Assembly (NCBI GenBank): GCA_037131065.1
Contig: JBAXRT010000001.1
Location: 391 to 64,390 of the forward strand
Direction of reading: 5' to 3'
DNA length: 64,000 bases
Source of the DNA: a bacterium
GTDB taxonomy: Bacteria > Bacteroidota > Bacteroidia > Bacteroidales > FEN-979
The first letter of the stretch is position 1. Each line of letters opens with the position of its first letter. Under the pieces are notes generated by a model. It made no database searches. It had not been told where the DNA came from and saw nothing but the letters and a program-made list of their open reading frames with translations. Both the position numbers and the translations under genes were made by a program. Of the stretch, positions 5,981 to 60,957 are shown piece after piece.

Positions 5981-7470
5981 TGAAAATGCCAAAATCGATC
6001 TCCAACTGGATCAGTATCATGGGTGCCCTCCTTGCCATCAACTCCTTCATCCTGATCGTCATCCTCTTTGTCCAGGCTCTGTTTTCTCAGCATCAGAACC
6101 CGTACAACGGGATGTTTACCTTTATCATTCTGCCCACGATCCTTGTCATCGGGCTGATCATGATCCCGGTGGGGATGCTCATAAAACGACTCCGCACGCG
6201 CGAAGACGACCAGCGCTGGCCCATTCTTGACATGAACAATTCAAGGCAGCGGCAGAAGTTGATCGTGGTATCCATCTTCATCTTTCTTTTTCTTATCGTA
6301 TCCGCTGTGGGAAGTTATGAGGCGTTTAACTATACCGAATCGGTGGAATTCTGCGGGAAGCTTTGTCATAAGGTGATGGAGCCGGAACATACAACTTACC
6401 TCCATTCCCCTCATGCACGCGTGGCCTGCGTCGAGTGTCATGTGGGAGAGGGTGCCAACTGGTATGTCAAATCCAAGCTTTCGGGGCTCTACCAGGTCTA
6501 CTCTGTCATCTTCAATAAATATTCTAGACCCATTGAAACACCACTCAAGAACCTGCGCCCGGCGCGTGAAACCTGCGAGCGTTGCCACTGGCCCCAGAAA
6601 TTCTATGCCCGCAAGCTTCGCAGCCAGCGGACCTACCTTACCGACTCACTTAACACCGAATGGAATTTCTCACTCATGATGAAGATCGGTCCCAGCCTGA
6701 GTCCGATGGGCCTCAAAGAGGGGATCCACTGGCATATCAACCCTGATGTACGGATTGAATATGTTGCCTCGACCAGGGACCGGGAAACAATCCCCTGGGT
6801 AAAGATGACCAATATCAAAACGGGCGATGTTCAGATATTCCAGGATACGGAAAACGTGGTGGATAAGAAATCGCTCGATACCCTCGAACACAGGATCATG
6901 GACTGCATGGATTGCCACAATCGTCCTTCCCACTCCTATAAATCCGCCATGGTTTATACCGACAACGCCATGATCTCCGGGGCCGTCCCCAAGGATCTGC
7001 CCTTTATCAAAAAGGTTGCGATGAACGTTCTGAAAGGACCCTTTACCAACAAGGACTCAGCCCTCAGGTACATAAGCGACAGCATTACCAACTTCTATAG
7101 AATGGGATATCCTTCGATCTACGCGGAAAAGAAGGCATCGGTAGAAAAGGCCATCAAGGGGATCCAGGATGAATTCGTGTTGAATGTTTTCCCTTATATG
7201 CGGGTCTCTGCTTCGAGCTACCTGAACCACATCGGCCATCTTGAGTCCGACGGCTGTTTCCGTTGCCACTCAGGAAAGCACAAGAGCGACAAGGGGAAGA
7301 TCATCTCCAAGGATTGCAACATGTGCCATACGATTGTTGCCCAGGGTTCGTCCTCCAACATGCAATATACCACGATGGACAAGGAGATGGAGTTCGTCCA
7401 CCCGATCGACGTGAAAGACAACTGGAAAACCTATTTCTGTACCGAGTGTCACAGGATTCTTTATCCTTAG
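5980..7470 (+). CDS. Membrane-anchored multihaem cytochrome c, NapC/NirT-related, ImcH-like architecture
   Basis: Three N-terminal TM helices followed by seven haem-type motifs: CGKLCH (CX3CH), CVECH, CERCH, CMDCH, CFRCH, CNMCH, CTECH. The first motif lies in the NapC/NirT-like context ESVEFC…CH. Confidence 0.8.
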   Translation: MKMPKSISNWISIMGALLAINSFILIVILFVQALFSQHQNPYNGMFTFIILPTILVIGLIMIPVGMLIKRLRTREDDQRWPILDMNNSRQRQKLIVVSIFIFLFLIVSAVGSYEAFNYTESVEFCGKLCHKVMEPEHTTYLHSPHARVACVECHVGEGANWYVKSKLSGLYQVYSVIFNKYSRPIETPLKNLRPARETCERCHWPQKFYARKLRSQRTYLTDSLNTEWNFSLMMKIGPSLSPMGLKEGIHWHINPDVRIEYVASTRDRETIPWVKMTNIKTGDVQIFQDTENVVDKKSLDTLEHRIMDCMDCHNRPSHSYKSAMVYTDNAMISGAVPKDLPFIKKVAMNVLKGPFTNKDSALRYISDSITNFYRMGYPSIYAEKKASVEKAIKGIQDEFVLNVFPYMRVSASSYLNHIGHLESDGCFRCHSGKHKSDKGKIISKDCNMCHTIVAQGSSSNMQYTTMDKEMEFVHPIDVKDNWKTYFCTECHRILYP

Positions 7471-7505
7471 CACTCGTCACTCTTAAATCGTCACTCGTCA
7501 CTCAA
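7471..7505. repeat. Heptamer tandem array, 5 units: CACTCGT CACTCTT AAATCGT CACTCGT CACTCAA
   Basis: Read directly. It fills the gap between convergent genes. The stop codon of the minus-strand gene (7498..7500) lies inside the array. Confidence 0.85.
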
Positions 7506-9585: not shown

Positions 9586-9652
9586 AAGGTCATTGGAAAT
9601 TGGTATTAGGGTGAACAGGAAATGTTTTATAATAACAAAAATACTAAGAATT

Positions 9653-9751
9653 AATGCAGGAATGCAGTTTTTAGTCCGCAGTCCGCAGTCTTCAGTCTTC
9701 AGTCTGCAAATTCATCAACATCACTTCATCACTGCGTCACAATTTCATCAC
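9653..9751. repeat. Composite short-tandem-repeat tract: AATGCAGG x2, then AGTCCGC x2, AGTCTTC x2, AGTCTGC x1, then degenerate TTCATCA-containing units
   Basis: Read directly. It lies in the divergent intergenic region between the T9SS propeller gene and guaB. Confidence 0.85.
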
Positions 9752-23159: not shown

Positions 23160-23167
23160 CAAAAATA
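23160..23167 (-). promoter_or_regulatory. Candidate -7 box TATTTTTG (reverse strand) for the POT transporter gene
   Basis: TAnnTTTG match, 50 nt upstream of the ATG at 23109. Confidence 0.4.
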
Positions 23168-23269: not shown

Positions 23270-23785
23270 ATGAACCTCCAGGATTTTCAGAAAACGGTCT
23301 ACCCTTTGAAAGATAAACTCTTCCGCTTTTCGAAACGATTGCTTGAGCGGACCGAAGAGGCGGAAGATATTGTCCAGGAGGTCTTCATCAGGTTATGGAA
23401 CCGGCGTGAAAAACTGGATGAATACAGGAGCGTGGAGGCACTTGCGATGATAACAGCAAAAAACCTCTGCCTCGATAAACTGAGGACTCGGCGGTTTGCT
23501 TTAGAGAGCCTGGATGATAAGAAGAGTTATATCGACCGGATACCGGGGGAGACCAGGGCTGACCATTCAGACCTCATCCATGGGATACACCAGGCCATCC
23601 GCCAGCTTCCCGAACTGCAGCAGATGGTCATCCACCTTCGCGATATCGAGGAGTATGAGTTTGATCAGATCGCCGAGATGCTGGAGATGAATGAAAATGC
23701 AGTGAGGGTAAACTTGTCGAGGGCCAGGAAAAGGGTCCGTGAAATATTGACTAACGCCAAAGTATATGAATACCAGAGAAATTGA
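23270..23785 (+). CDS. ECF-type RNA polymerase sigma-70 factor
   Basis: Region 2 (AEDIVQEVFIRLW) and region 4 (MVIHLRDIEEYEFDQIAEMLEMNENAVRVNLSRARKR). Confidence 0.9.
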   Translation: MNLQDFQKTVYPLKDKLFRFSKRLLERTEEAEDIVQEVFIRLWNRREKLDEYRSVEALAMITAKNLCLDKLRTRRFALESLDDKKSYIDRIPGETRADHSDLIHGIHQAIRQLPELQQMVIHLRDIEEYEFDQIAEMLEMNENAVRVNLSRARKRVREILTNAKVYEYQRN

Positions 23786-24362
23786 GAAACTGCTTGAAAG
23801 GTACGAGGAAGGACTGACCTCCATCCCCGAGGAAAAGCTGCTGAAGGAGTTCTTCAGTGGAAGCGATGTGCCTGAGCACCTCCGTCCCTACGCCTCCTTA
23901 TTCAACTATTTCGACCAGTCAAAATCCGAAACGATTACCAATCCTGATTTCGATGTTAAAACGGACCATCTTCTTTCACACCCAAATCTAAAATCTGAAA
24001 TCGTAAATCGTAAATCCATCCGTCACTCGTCACTCGTCATTCGTCATTCGTCACTCGTCACTCGTCACTATGCCTTGGGTATTGCCGCCTCTGTTCTTCT
24101 AATTGTCGGACTCTTCTTTACTTTCCGCCAGGACATTTTCAGAAAGAAAAACACGGTGACCTATACCGAACAGCAGGAACAGGCTTATGCCGAGGTCCAA
24201 AAGGCGCTTTATACGGTTTCTGCCAACTTAAACATTGGACTTGACCAGTTCCGGCGCCTCGAGCCGATCGGGAAAGCCGTTGACCAGGTACAAAAAATTT
24301 CAAAGTTCTATCAATACCAGCCCATCATTATTAACCCGGACACCCCCACAGTACGTCCATAA
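23766..24362 (+). CDS. Probable single-pass anti-sigma-like partner of the ECF sigma (hypothetical)
   Basis: Overlaps the sigma gene stop by 20 nt. It has a soluble N-terminus followed by one TM (YALGIAASVLLIVGLFF). An 84-bp heptamer array is embedded in-frame just before the TM. Confidence 0.55.
   Translation: MNTREIEKLLERYEEGLTSIPEEKLLKEFFSGSDVPEHLRPYASLFNYFDQSKSETITNPDFDVKTDHLLSHPNLKSEIVNRKSIRHSSLVIRHSSLVTRHYALGIAASVLLIVGLFFTFRQDIFRKKNTVTYTEQQEQAYAEVQKALYTVSANLNIGLDQFRRLEPIGKAVDQVQKISKFYQYQPIIINPDTPTVRP
23984..24067. repeat. Heptamer tandem array, 12 phase-coherent units inside a CDS: AAATCTA AAATCTG AAATCGT x2 AAATCCA TCCGTCA CTCGTCA x2 TTCGTCA x2 CTCGTCA x2
   Basis: Read directly and anchored to the ORF frame. 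It is 84 bp (4 x 21), so the reading frame is preserved. It encodes NLKSEIVNRKSIRHSSLVIRHSSLVTRH. Confidence 0.9.
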
Positions 24363-27866: not shown

Positions 27867-27938
27867 ATGCTTTTTATTGCTTAATCCGTTTTATGGGGAA
27901 AAGGTGATACTTGAATCTTAAGTAGTTTTTGTTTTTTG

Positions 27939-27946
27939 TATTTTTG
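27939..27946 (+). promoter_or_regulatory. -7 box TATTTTTG for the DUF2461 gene
   Basis: TAnnTTTG match, 16 nt upstream of the ATG at 27963. Confidence 0.5.
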
Positions 27947-37267: not shown

Positions 37268-38275
37268 TTAATTCATCGAATTGATCTTCAGAGTGTCATG
37301 GAAAAAGGTTTCCCGCTGAGGCACCTTTTTCATCAGGTTCTCGTAAAGGAGTGCACCCGGATCCCTGGGGATTTTCAGGGTGTAGATCTTACCGGATTTA
37401 TTCGGCAACATATAGCTCTGGATCCAGGGGTTGAGCTCCCGAAGCACACGGTAATTGGTCTTCAGCGTAAGGGCGAGGGCTGGAAGATCCTTTACGGTAC
37501 TGTCGATGGTCACCAGTTTTGTCGATACCTGGGGATAGAAGTCCTGTTCAATAGTATAAAATCCATACCTGACGGGGTTATTATAGACCTGCTTGATGGC
37601 AATGATCCTGAACAGGTAACGTGAGGTCTCCTCATTAAGATAGAGATCGTAATAGTTTGATACTTTTTGCTTCTGAAGCGCTTTGGCGATGCCATCCGGA
37701 CCCCGGTTGTAGGCGGCGGCGACCAGCGTCCAGTTTTTATATTGCTTCCAGCCATCCTTGAAATATTCACAGGCTGCCTGTGTTGCCTTTTCCATGTTAT
37801 ATCTTTCGTCAACATCCGGGTTGATCTCCAGTCCGTAATTCTGGCCAGTGGCCTTGAGAAATTGCCAGGGCCCCTCGGCGCCTGCAGGTGAAGTAACATT
37901 CCCCAGATTGCTCTCGGCTACGGCAAGGAATTTGAAATCATCTGGAATACCGTTTTTCTTCAGGATCGGTTCGATAACAGGAAACCAGCGGTAGGCGCGC
38001 TTGAACATTTGAAGAGTGGAAGAGTGCATGAAGGTGCCTGCCATGATCTCACGCTCCATCGCCTCCCTGACATAATACAGGTTCATCGGAACCTCTTCCC
38101 CGGCAAAAGTTATCTTCACGGGAACCTCCGGTACAAATACCTTCGTGTATTTGCGGAAAAGTTTGTGGTATGCCTCATCAATCGTATTGTTATCCGGGAT
38201 CATGGCAAAAACGAAGATCACCAGTACAATGCCCATCACCACTCCGGTGGCCAGGTACCCGATTCTGTTTTTCAT
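37268..38275 (-). CDS. Membrane-anchored lytic transglycosylase (SLT domain, MltD-like)
   Basis: Start trimmed to MKNRIGYLATGVVMGIVLVIFVF. SLT catalytic region LAVAESNLGNVTSPAGAEGPWQF…YNRGP. Confidence 0.75.
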   Translation of the reverse strand: MKNRIGYLATGVVMGIVLVIFVFAMIPDNNTIDEAYHKLFRKYTKVFVPEVPVKITFAGEEVPMNLYYVREAMEREIMAGTFMHSSTLQMFKRAYRWFPVIEPILKKNGIPDDFKFLAVAESNLGNVTSPAGAEGPWQFLKATGQNYGLEINPDVDERYNMEKATQAACEYFKDGWKQYKNWTLVAAAYNRGPDGIAKALQKQKVSNYYDLYLNEETSRYLFRIIAIKQVYNNPVRYGFYTIEQDFYPQVSTKLVTIDSTVKDLPALALTLKTNYRVLRELNPWIQSYMLPNKSGKIYTLKIPRDPGALLYENLMKKVPQRETFFHDTLKINSMN

Positions 38276-38310
38276 AAGTAGTTCCTTAGTCTGATTCCAT
38301 TTCCTTAAGA

Positions 38311-38408
38311 AGTCCGCAGTCTGCAGTCTGCAGTCTGCAGCCAGCAATACCAAATCTAAAATCTAAAATCTTAAATCAATTCGTCACTCGTCAATAGTCA
38401 TTCGTCAC
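38311..38408. repeat. Heptamer tandem array, 14 phase-coherent units in three modules: AGTCCGC AGTCTGC x3 AGCCAGC | AATACCA AATCTAA x2 AATCTTA AATCAAT | TCGTCAC TCGTCAA TAGTCAT TCGTCAC
   Basis: Read directly and anchored to flanking ORF ends. It fills most of the gap between the rfbC stop (38412) and the transglycosylase start (38275). Confidence 0.95.
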
Positions 38409-38411
38409 TGG

Positions 38412-38954
38412 TTAAAACGGCGAAACAAAATCCCTGAACAGCGGCGACACTTTGTCTTTTTCCGAGATCACAGGTTCTGCAATTCCCCAGTCTATTCCGA
38501 GATCCGGATCAGACCAGAGAATACTCCCTTCCGAAGGCTTGTTATATACATTTGTGCATTTGTAGAAAAAGATCGTGTCATCCTCCAGGGTAACAAATCC
38601 GTGGGCAAATCCCGACGGGATCCAGTACATCCATTTGTTTTGTCCCGATAAAACGATCGATTCCCATTTTCCGTATGTGGAAGAGTTTTTCCTGATATCG
38701 ACTGCCACATCGAGGACGGACCCGCGCATCACGCGGACCAGCTTACCCTGATCATAGGGCGGGGCCTGGAAATGAAGTCCCCTCAACACACCCTGTTTTG
38801 ATTTAGATTCATTGTCCTGGACAAATCTCAGATCCAGGCCATGCTTCAGCAACCGGGCATGGTTGTAGGATTCAAAGAAATATCCCCGTTCATCCTCAAA
38901 CACATCAGGCTTGATGATCAGCAAGCCCTCCAGTGGCGTCTTTATTATCTCCAT
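38412..38954 (-). CDS. rfbC: dTDP-4-dehydrorhamnose 3,5-epimerase
   Basis: FEDERGYFFESY, LRGLHFQ and SGFAHGF motifs. No rfbA, rfbB or rfbD gene is nearby. Confidence 0.92.
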   Translation of the reverse strand: MEIIKTPLEGLLIIKPDVFEDERGYFFESYNHARLLKHGLDLRFVQDNESKSKQGVLRGLHFQAPPYDQGKLVRVMRGSVLDVAVDIRKNSSTYGKWESIVLSGQNKWMYWIPSGFAHGFVTLEDDTIFFYKCTNVYNKPSEGSILWSDPDLGIDWGIAEPVISEKDKVSPLFRDFVSPF

Positions 38955-38962
38955 TGTTCGAT

Positions 38963-39026
38963 AATTTGAAAATTTGAAAATTTGATGATGTGAAGATGAA
39001 TTTTCAAATCTTCAAATCTTCAAATT
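38963..39026. repeat. Octamer tandem array arranged as an inverted repeat: AATTTGAA x2 AATTTGAT GATGTGAA GATGAATT TTCAAATC x2 TTCAAATT
   Basis: Read directly. The left and right halves are near reverse complements and could form a ~20-bp imperfect hairpin. It lies between the lpd stop and the rfbC start. Confidence 0.85.
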
Positions 39027-39037
39027 CATTGAATAGT

Positions 39038-40551: not shown

Positions 40552-40559
40552 TATTTTTG
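40552..40559 (+). promoter_or_regulatory. Candidate -7 box TATTTTTG upstream of the PLP-enzyme/thrC pair
   Basis: TAnnTTTG match, 58 nt upstream of the ATG at 40618. Confidence 0.4.
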
Positions 40560-56827: not shown

Positions 56828-56835
56828 CAAAAATA
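56828..56835 (-). promoter_or_regulatory. -7 box TATTTTTG (reverse strand) for hppA
   Basis: TAnnTTTG match, 30 nt upstream of the ATG at 56797. Confidence 0.5.
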
Positions 56836-56933: not shown

Positions 56934-57518
56934 ATGGAAAAAATCAGGCTTGATATCGTTGGCATGTCTTACAGCCAGTCACAGTCCGGTGCCTATGCCC
57001 TGATTCTCGGGGAACGAGATGGGAAGAGAAGACTGCCTATCATCATCGGTGGCTTTGAAGCCCAGGCCATTGCCATTGAACTTGAGAAAATAAAGACCCC
57101 GCGCCCGCTCACGCACGACCTTTTCAGAACCTTTGCAGAGGTCTATGGGATCCGGATCACGGAAGTGGTAATTAATAAATTCAGTGAGGGAGTATTTTAT
57201 GCAAAGCTGGTATGCTCTGACGGAAAAAACGAGCAGGACGTGGATTCCCGGACCTCCGATGCAATCGCACTCTCCCTTCGGTTCAATTGCCCCATCTACA
57301 CCTACGAAAGTATAATGGTTGCCGCAGGGATTCTGGTAGATGAGGAGTCGGAGAAGGCTGCCACCGAGGATTCAAAAAAGGAAGATCAGCCGCCGGCGCA
57401 ATCAGATTACAGCGAACTTTCCATGGCCGAACTCGGGGAAATGCTCCAGGTTGCAATTGAAAAAGAGGAGTATGAAAAAGCTTCAAAAATCAGGGACGAA
57501 ATAAACAAAAGAAAATAA
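56934..57518 (+). CDS. Bifunctional nuclease (BFN/DUF151) domain protein with a C-terminal UVR motif
   Basis: MEKIRLDIVGMSYSQSQSGAYALILGE…RLPIIIGGFEAQAIA…RPLTHDL is typical of BFN. C-terminal LQVAIEKEEYEKASKIRDEI is a UvrB/C-type motif. Confidence 0.8.
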   Translation: MEKIRLDIVGMSYSQSQSGAYALILGERDGKRRLPIIIGGFEAQAIAIELEKIKTPRPLTHDLFRTFAEVYGIRITEVVINKFSEGVFYAKLVCSDGKNEQDVDSRTSDAIALSLRFNCPIYTYESIMVAAGILVDEESEKAATEDSKKEDQPPAQSDYSELSMAELGEMLQVAIEKEEYEKASKIRDEINKRK

Positions 57519-57534
57519 AATAAAACCAATACTT

Positions 57535-60133: not shown

Positions 60134-60957
60134 AGTGCCTTCTTCTTTACTCTTTATCTATCTCATTACTGTTTACCGCGGTCTCCTGCTCCAAAAACAA
60201 AGAGACTGATCTGAAACCAATCCTGAATGCGGCCAATGACATCATCCTTGTCCAGCGCCCCTTCATCTTTGCCTTTAACCTGCTGGTCAAGGCATCGCTT
60301 GATTCCGCACTTCAGGCGAATTATCATGCAAACATCGACAGCTCCGCCGTCGTCCTCAACCCGGGGAAGAAAAAATATACCTTTTCTTTTACCGGGAAAC
60401 TCTGTCCCGACAGTGTAATCAGGTTCGGATATATCCAGGCCATCCTGGATACGAATCTTTTTATCCCCGGATCAAAAGTGAAGATCGTTTTCAACTACTA
60501 TTCAGAGGACAGTCATGGAATCACGGCTGACGACAGCCTATTGAACGAAGGGCCACTGCCGGGGGGAGAACTTATTTTTAAGAATATGCTATCCGGAGTG
60601 TCCATTTCAAAGGATATCACCAGGAATATCAAATGGGAGGGGAGCTTCAATTTTCATGTTCAATCCGATATAATCTACCATGGCACAAAAAAGGCTGTCA
60701 TCACAGTGGATGGTTCCGGACAGGGGACCTCATCCATGGGATATTTGTTCTACTCCTCCATTGCCTCTTCACTCAGGGACAGTCTTGATTGTCCCTGGCC
60801 TAAAGACGGGATCATCAATTTCTATATGCCCGAGGTGGAACCAAAAAACGGCTCCATTGAGTTTATGGCAAAAAAATCCTGTAATAACCATATTAACTAC
60901 AATTTCGATGGGGTCCTTTACGAAGGATGGATCAGTGATAAGTACCTGATCAAATAA
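60130..60957 (+). CDS. Hypothetical lipoprotein translationally coupled to folA
   Basis: ATGA overlap with the folA stop. Signal plus lipobox (LLFTAVSCSKNKE). No recognisable domain. Confidence 0.5.
   Translation: MKCLLLYSLSISLLFTAVSCSKNKETDLKPILNAANDIILVQRPFIFAFNLLVKASLDSALQANYHANIDSSAVVLNPGKKKYTFSFTGKLCPDSVIRFGYIQAILDTNLFIPGSKVKIVFNYYSEDSHGITADDSLLNEGPLPGGELIFKNMLSGVSISKDITRNIKWEGSFNFHVQSDIIYHGTKKAVITVDGSGQGTSSMGYLFYSSIASSLRDSLDCPWPKDGIINFYMPEVEPKNGSIEFMAKKSCNNHINYNFDGVLYEGWISDKYLIK

Follow-up and report, generated by a model that had tools for sequence, protein, structure and literature searches.

A compound heptanucleotide repeat in an operon spacer of a Bacteroidales genome and its counterparts at other loci

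What produced a tract of 14 consecutive heptamers, 98 nt long, in the spacer between two housekeeping genes of a Bacteroidales genome (positions 38311-38408), and does its build reflect any function? The tract lies in a 64,000-nt stretch of DNA, below called the window, and consists of three blocks with units of the types AGTCYGC, AATCTAA and TCGTCAC, named here A, B and C. Since similar blocks occur elsewhere in the window, the preliminary description proposed that the order and orientation of the modules are conserved, and that this points either to copying of a composite element or to selection for a defined architecture.

The window belongs to a metagenome-assembled genome (MAG) of an uncultured Bacteroidales bacterium. 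It encodes a Pfam T9SS sorting tail and DUF4252 beside an ECF sigma factor, and homologues of its proteins are named Bacteroidales or Bacteroidota; for two of them NCBI has MAG proteins at 100% identity, one of which bears the locus tag WCO93_00100. The array fills most of one spacer in a conserved minus-strand run of genes, lpdA-rfbC-SLT-uvrA. The features of the locus are as follows.

37268..38275, minus strand: gene downstream of the array, a lytic transglycosylase (SLT domain, MltD-like; Pfam PF01464)
38276..38411, minus strand: rfbC-SLT spacer holding the array, 136 nt
38311..38345, plus strand: block A, units AGTCCGC, AGTCTGC (three times), AGCCAGC
38346..38380, plus strand: block B, units AATACCA, AATCTAA (twice), AATCTTA, AATCAAT; the unit in Tandem Repeats Finder is AAATCTA, and the last unit is the junction
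38381..38408, plus strand: block C, units TCGTCAC, TCGTCAA, TAGTCAT, TCGTCAC
38412..38954, minus strand: gene upstream of the array, rfbC (dTDP-4-dehydrorhamnose 3,5-epimerase; Pfam PF00908, E=1.7e-71); its product, P0171, is 100% identical to an NCBI MAG protein

The start of the transglycosylase gene at 38275 agrees with the N-termini of homologues; its start codon context is kept in the relative L281, and the leader AAGGAACTACTTATG beside it is kept in relatives. This start is 35 nt from the edge of the array. In the transcript the array reads GTGACGA..., TTAGATT..., GCAGACT..., with its first base 3 nt past the rfbC stop codon. The flanking genes (rfbC, SLT, uvrA) are housekeeping genes.

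The 14 heptamers in three blocks are borne out both by the sequence and by Tandem Repeats Finder (TRF), which gives three adjoining period-7 arrays at this locus (38311-38340, 38352-38377 and 38381-38409, with scores 53, 45 and 37). At an autocorrelation threshold of 22 of 28 positions the window contains three regions of period 7, one of period 8 and none of periods 4-6 and 9-11, whereas 100 dinucleotide-preserving shuffles of the window contain no tracts at any period. The tract is real, and chance is excluded. The units abut with no spacers between them, which sets the array apart from CRISPR arrays.

The register, described as perfect, is indeed strict within each block. Between the blocks it depends on the rotation chosen for each unit, and for this reason the lack of a phase slip there says little. 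In the register where homologous letters are aligned (AGTCTGC / AATCTAA / AATCGTA / ACTCGTC), the unit at the B/C boundary is a 5-nt AATCA, that is, a slip of 2 nt. Blocks A and B are alike at 4 of 7 positions in the register of the preliminary description, which, by a binomial estimate of about 0.4 for freely rotated heptamers, is no better than chance. The remark that every third unit would present on the same face of the helix is arithmetic only: A-tracts spaced by 7 bp are 240 degrees out of phase, and their bends should cancel rather than add. Each unit junction of block A forms a CTGCAG palindrome, so that the block is self-complementary and can fold on itself.

Units of these three families recur at three further loci of the window.

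7471..7503, plus strand: third block-C array, TCGTCAC units with one in-phase B-type unit (TCTTAAA, AAATCGT-type), in a convergent spacer
9673..9740, plus strand: second block-A array, five AGTCYKC units (9673-9708) followed by decayed TCATCAC/GCGTCAC 7-8-mers, in a divergent spacer upstream of guaB
23984..24069, plus strand: paralogous B/B'-to-C heptamer array, in frame within a putative anti-sigma gene (23766-24362)

The units of the array at 23984 are AAATCTA, AAATCTG, AAATCGT, AAATCGT and AAATCCA, followed by eight xTCGTCA units. The succession from AAATCTA to TCGTCA on the same strand at this locus and the AGTCYGC block at the beginning of the 9673 tract agree with what had been reported; the 7471 locus is an addition to that list, and the stop codon TGA (7498-7500) of the gene with the T9SS tail lies inside one of its GTGACGA units. 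Three of the four arrays are intergenic, the one at 23984 being the coding one. All four are written on the plus strand. Their orientation is thus constant on the chromosome and not relative to transcription, as they occupy co-directional, convergent and divergent spacers as well as a coding region. The full order A-B-C is found at 38311 only, block A at 9673 being followed by decayed units. The window also contains weak short-period tracts detected by TRF, namely five TCTTTAC units at 67% match (60144-60176), 5.6 AAATA units (57499-57525) and 2.8 units of TTTTTGTA (27926-27946).

The B-to-C parts of two of these loci can be aligned. Positions 38349-38407 and 23981-24046 are identical at 54 of 58 positions (93%) with one unit-sized gap, and they share the 5' boundary CCAAATCTAAAATCT, a short junction unit (at 23984 it is a 5-nt AATCC) and a similar order of CAC and CAT variants. 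The alignment score is 73, compared to 43-62 against 12 AATCGTA-to-TCGTCAC composites from other genomes. In this the preliminary description is supported, and the recurrence is not a matter of independent chance: the same families stand at four loci on one strand, and two of them match at 54 of 58 positions. The simplest reading is that the B-to-C part is likely shared between 38311 and 23984 by copying or concerted evolution. Of the two explanations offered initially, copying is thus likely for B-to-C, and a selected design is not supported, since A-B-C stands at a single locus and the orders vary elsewhere.

One possibility is that the composite is a cassette, either A-B-C or B-C, that is copied or mobile and spreads by templated transfer between loci and perhaps between genomes, which would make it a repeated element and not a local microsatellite. 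Such a cassette would account for the 54/58 match with its common junction unit and for the co-orientation of the four window loci. Similar B-to-C junctions are also present in other Bacteroidales contigs (AAATTCAATTCGTCAC in L118/L276). In L273 two compound arrays 4.4 kb apart (1616-1730 and 6055-6195) are written on one strand, with AAATCGT units preceding TCGTCAY units; each of them is preceded by an inverted array containing GTGAC (GTGACGC 7-mers, GGTGACAA 8-mers). However, no similarity extends beyond the repeat units at any fetched locus, and the array at 38311 has no flanking inverted or direct repeats, that is, neither the terminal inverted repeats nor the target duplications of a MITE or REP-like element. 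The scores of 43-62 against unrelated genomes are close to the intragenomic score of 73, which makes convergence along a short mutational path a real alternative. The AATC-type and TCGTCAC units are mutational neighbours, and the window has examples of TCGTCAC, TCGTCAA, TCGTAAA, TCTTAAA and TCTAAAA. Together with the arrangement of the blocks in other genomes, these observations make the cassette unlikely.

TCGTCAC arrays occur in at least 119 genome tiles from many phyla. This reflects the general abundance of heptamer arrays and not a common element, because the count of the C unit in viral contigs is within the range of permuted units: exact three-unit (21-mer) runs form 25 stretches for the C unit, 6 for A and 53 for B, and random permutations of C form 5, 44 and 7. 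On these counts the idea that TCGTCAC is a special, horizontally spread unit was rejected. Among 157 TCGTCAC arrays collected without bias, a block of the AATC type lies upstream in six cases and downstream in one; one of the six is a second copy of this window, which leaves 5 vs 1, and the trend is not significant. An AGTCYGC block adjoins none of the 157 (0/157), so that blocks A and C are nowhere neighbours in that set, and a widespread A-B-C cassette was discarded as well. A scan of metagenomes for the junction pattern produced 10 contigs with TCGTAAA and TCGTCAC units in phase, several of which have sequences suggestive of a high-GC, non-Bacteroidales origin. Both orders and in-phase mixtures are seen in these contigs (L270, L271, L273, L118/L276), and the rule that B always precedes C was abandoned. 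Conservation of the module order, as initially claimed, is not supported by these mixed orders, nor by the absence of block A beside these C arrays. The orientation of C arrays is weakly associated with local GC skew (p = 0.016), an association confounded by gene direction.

If the architecture were selected, it might be expected in the orthologous spacers of close relatives. The synteny lpdA-rfbC-SLT-uvrA is kept in them, although the spacer content differs. In the nearest relative (L281/L282, RfbC 93% identical) the rfbC-SLT spacer is only 15 nt long, CGAAAGGAACCACTA, and contains a lone GTGACGA. The rfbC stop codon TGA lies inside this heptamer, at the site where block C starts in the window (about 2107-2113 in L281), and the leader AAGGAACYACTnATG is kept on the SLT side. 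In L283/L120 (RfbC 91% identical; SLT 89% identical in L120 and of the same length, 344 aa, in L283) the spacer is filled with 8-mers, AATGCAGG four times and AATTCAGG twice. Other relatives have a 58-nt spacer with no array (L121, SLT 76%) or GAGTTAG-type 7-mers (L124, SLT 70%). The octamer AATGCAGG also occurs twice directly 5' of block A at 9673 (window 9650-9664), and it fills both rfbC-flanking spacers of L283/L120 (L120 83-130; L283 428-462 and 1027-1074). A scan of metagenomes with a 28-mer from the rfbC flank gave no match.

The neighbouring lpdA-rfbC spacer behaves in the same manner: it contains inverted 8-mers in the window, 13 units of AAACCYG in L281, AATGCAGA-type 8-mers in L283 and GTGAGGA/GTTAGGA units in L124. 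In the (AAACCYG)n array at the rfbC start codon, C and T units follow one another differently in L281 (1473-1554, C C T T T C T T T C...) and L282 (1-66, C C T T C T T T T...), which are metagenome samples of a single species; this indicates gain and loss of single units. Variation in units between close strains or species is thus present at arrays other than 38311, both here and in the anti-sigma gene, where the window and L277 differ by 6 units.

As shown by these comparisons, the spacers of the clade are repeatedly filled with 7-8-nt arrays whose unit, period and number turn over quickly. The 98-nt composite itself is, by the same comparison of sequences, lineage-specific, the result either of expansion in this lineage alone or of collapse in the relatives. 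The operon does not need the array, since the spacer of the closest relative has 15 nt. Selection for a defined architecture is at odds with orthologous spacers that have no array, other units or even another period. A lineage-specific function of the array may be compatible with such absence of conservation.

The array at 23984 allows one to follow the same process within a gene. The linker that it encodes directly precedes the transmembrane helix of a putative anti-sigma factor, whose ORF is annotated as a gene in NCBI (P0121). The orthologue in L277 (871-903) keeps CACACCCAAATCTAAAATCTGAAATCGTAAATCTTAAATC and only about 1.5 C units, the gap being exactly 42 nt, or 6 units, or 14 codons. The orthologue in L278 (1979-2045) has (CACGCGT)n at the same site and no B block. 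An array at this juxtamembrane site is thus kept in three species, and its variation is, as far as the sequences tell, slippage filtered by the reading frame. The only differences seen, between the window and L277, are in frame, and no out-of-frame variant was found. The forward TCGTCAC repeat has no stop codon in any frame, and the reverse one contains TGA; within ORFs of the 119 genome tiles, according to crude ORF calls, 39 C arrays are in the sense and none in the antisense orientation. A change by one unit would shift the frame of the anti-sigma gene, and so the tract could be a candidate switch for the adjacent ECF sigma factor.

The same array bears on the possibility that the tract is an assembly artefact, a mis-assembled low-complexity junction. 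The sequence derives from a MAG, and short-read assemblies are prone to errors at repeats. However, the 98-nt array is below the typical read length, and the genes on either side of it are complete and stand in the same order as in relatives. An independent assembly, L125, has the sister array at 23984 without a single difference and departs from the window at 1 position in 11,421 nt, with no gaps. An artefact is hardly credible.

The self-complementary block A raises the question of an RNA element in the operon, namely a terminator, attenuator or processing site in block A, or else an internal promoter in block B. No matches to Rfam 15 were found in the whole window, and a scan for sigma-70 promoters and terminators gave no match in the array and no terminator within 38276-38411. 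In the predicted fold block A forms an interrupted 11-bp hairpin that, unlike an intrinsic terminator, is not followed by a U-tract, and the fold of the whole spacer is not unusual (z = -1.1). Pairing between blocks A and C was considered and rejected, as their complementarity is at most 3 of 7 and the pairing is absent from the fold; block C has no inverted partner here.

The consensus of the Bacteroidetes -7 promoter box is TAnnTTTG. The edge of block B creates a match to it on the minus strand, TAGATTTG (38351-38358). The window contains 46 such motifs, compared to 30.5 expected (1 of 100 shuffles reaches 46), and they often lie 20-70 nt ahead of a gene start, on the strand of that gene (9636-9643, 23160-23167, 40552-40559, 56828-56835), which is consistent with Bacteroidetes-type promoters. 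However, TAGATTTG looks like a by-product of the block edge, because it recurs at 23983-23990, from the same array edge, within the anti-sigma coding sequence; moreover, no -33 TTTG is found at the right spacing from it.

Stronger folding is seen next door. The lpdA-rfbC spacer at 38963-39028 contains two 8-mer arrays, AATTTGAA three times and AAATCTTC two to three times, each the inverted complement of the other. In the minus-strand RNA this region folds into a stem of about 22 bp with minimum free energy -23.8 kcal/mol (z = -3.7), and none of 200 shuffles is as stable.

Similar inverted pairs are found in other genomes, where an inverted partner lies no more than 300 nt away from about 40% of the TCGTCAC arrays. 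The purine-rich arm comes first in all 48 GTGACGA...TCGTCAC pairs (L001-L119, L127-L151) and in all 7 pairs of a control heptamer, GGTCAGA...TCTGACC (L216-L259), whereas generic inverted repeats of the genome tiles L001-L119 show a 2:1 bias only (143 vs 73). The pairs are often flanked by an A-tract and a T-tract (aaaaCA / TGtttt). Among 40 inverted pairs in tiles L001-L119, 14 lie in convergent and 17 in co-directional spacers, after gene ends, and none in divergent ones. Judging from their position and flanks, the inverted pairs look like terminators built from arrays. For solo arrays in genome tiles, a gene end lies beside the GTGACGA-sense side in 56 of 110 cases and beside the other side in 27 of 110.

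An RNA element at 38311 could therefore appeal to the palindromes and hairpin of block A, to the TAGATTTG match, to the terminator-like inverted arrays at gene 3' ends elsewhere and to the strongly folding adjacent spacer. The missing U-tract and terminator match, the ordinary fold of the spacer, the unpaired block C and the recurrence of the promoter-like motif in a coding sequence leave it only a slender chance.

Another possibility is a multivalent platform on which a sequence-specific protein would bind DNA or RNA, each heptamer taking up one protomer, and so tune the expression of transglycosylase and uvrA; by analogy, one might think of ToxR at TTTTGAT heptads or of proteins of the cold-shock or S1 type. 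Such a platform would be in keeping with a set of units that is peculiar to the genome and recurs at several loci. There are functional precedents for heptads: the promoters of hmw1A and hmw2A in Haemophilus influenzae have 7-, 8- or 9-nt simple sequence repeats at equivalent loci depending on the strain (PMC2651432), TTTTGAT heptads are located upstream of ctxAB in Vibrio cholerae (10.1101/2021.05.14.444153), and RNA-binding proteins have been proposed for the TAACTGA repeats (PMC4679880). The hmw and ctxAB arrays resemble the present one in the period of 7 nt upstream of a gene and in the variable number of units, and those of hmw also in the different unit lengths at equivalent loci, as at the rfbC spacers. 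They differ in having a single unit type in promoters of surface or virulence genes, with shown effects, whereas the array considered here is compound, is located within an operon and neighbours housekeeping genes. As regards phase-variable contingency loci, where unit changes in the promoter or ORF of a variable surface gene switch expression, the genes flanking the array are housekeeping and the closest relative has no array; the anti-sigma array could shift the frame if one unit were gained or lost, and the arrays of the window and L277 differ in frame only. Several observations speak against a binding platform: the closest relatives have the same operon with no array; the units occur in every context of the window, including coding, and their orientation relative to transcription is inconsistent; C arrays in co-directional spacers across phyla show no preference, 24 being sense and 18 antisense; and the units are degenerate within blocks. 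A binding platform is thus improbable.

The array is more readily compared with known classes of short repeats. STRR1-3 are heptamers of heterocystous cyanobacteria. The cyanobacterial STRR, which Mazel et al. in 1990 are said to have described, reportedly form several heptamer families per genome at dispersed non-coding loci and have no known function. The heptamer units, the several families per genome and the dispersal are common to STRR and the window, whereas the phylum is different and the STRR units CCCCAGT, TTGGTCA and CAACAGT are not those found here (AGTCTGC, AAATCTA, TCGTCAC), so that the array is not an STRR in the proper sense.

LSSRs, according to the summary of Mrazek et al. (2007) given in PMC4679880, are repeats of 5-11-nt units in prokaryotes, heptanucleotides being the commonest. 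Their units are arranged head to tail, for the most part between genes; copy number varies from strain to strain, and polymerase slippage is regarded as their source. The array matches this class in its 14 7-nt units beyond chance, in the non-coding location of three of four arrays with the coding one in frame, and in the variation of unit number at the other arrays. It differs in that several families are joined in a tract, recurring at four loci in 64 kb, one of them in frame within a gene.

The closest parallels are the mixed heptamer assemblages in spacers of Bacteroidetes, described in Gramella forsetii, Aequorivita sublithincola and Elizabethkingia anophelis alongside TAACTGA repeats (MacGregor 2015, PMC4679880). 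There too a spacer of a Bacteroidetes genome contains several heptamer direct repeats, and relatives with the same neighbourhood have shorter repeat-free spacers; in Elizabethkingia nearly identical repeat-bearing spacers are found at two loci (PMC4679880). The unit sequences are different, and TAACTGA is absent here. The repeats of Beggiatoaceae and Flexibacter are consistently in forward orientation just upstream of start codons, an arrangement that the array at 38311 does not have. The tract thus fits the known class of heptanucleotide repeats.

The tract is, in our judgement, probably a compound heptanucleotide simple-sequence repeat of the LSSR or STRR-like kind in the rfbC-SLT spacer, produced by slippage and copying between loci and neutral or nearly neutral. 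Replication slippage would amplify 7-nt units; point mutations would create variant units, which, when amplified in turn into blocks, would give the apparent modules; and ectopic conversion or template switching may now and then transfer sequence between arrays that have units in common at different loci. Such exchange would make the B-to-C part resemble the anti-sigma array 14 kb away on the same strand. We infer this ectopic copying step because purely local slippage leaves unexplained both the recurrence at four loci on one strand and the 93% match of the B-to-C parts. The array is probably non-essential and, as a spacer, likely neutral or close to it. If it influences expression at all, this would be a side effect, the candidates being the CTGCAG hairpin of block A and TAGATTTG at the edge of block B. 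The window evidence on order and strand covers 64 kb of this genome, and at the sequence level nothing suggests a conserved regulatory design in three parts.

A bolder reading is that the arrays of the clade are actively propagated between spacers and recruited as RNA elements, the polarity of the inverted pairs reflecting repeat-built terminators and the anti-sigma array serving as a frameshift switch. Active propagation would explain the genome-specific sets of units, the common junctions and the copies on the same strand. We regard this combination as quite unlikely.

Under the preferred reading of a slippage-born and partly copied repeat, the array illustrates the origin, decay and spread of compound microsatellites in the operon spacers of bacteria. 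It is also a caution that modules need not mean architecture. The finding would gain weight if copying of arrays between loci were systematic, if repeat-built hairpins with fixed polarity of the arms were a general route to terminators, or if the heptamer tract of the anti-sigma gene switched the regulon of the ECF sigma factor on and off.
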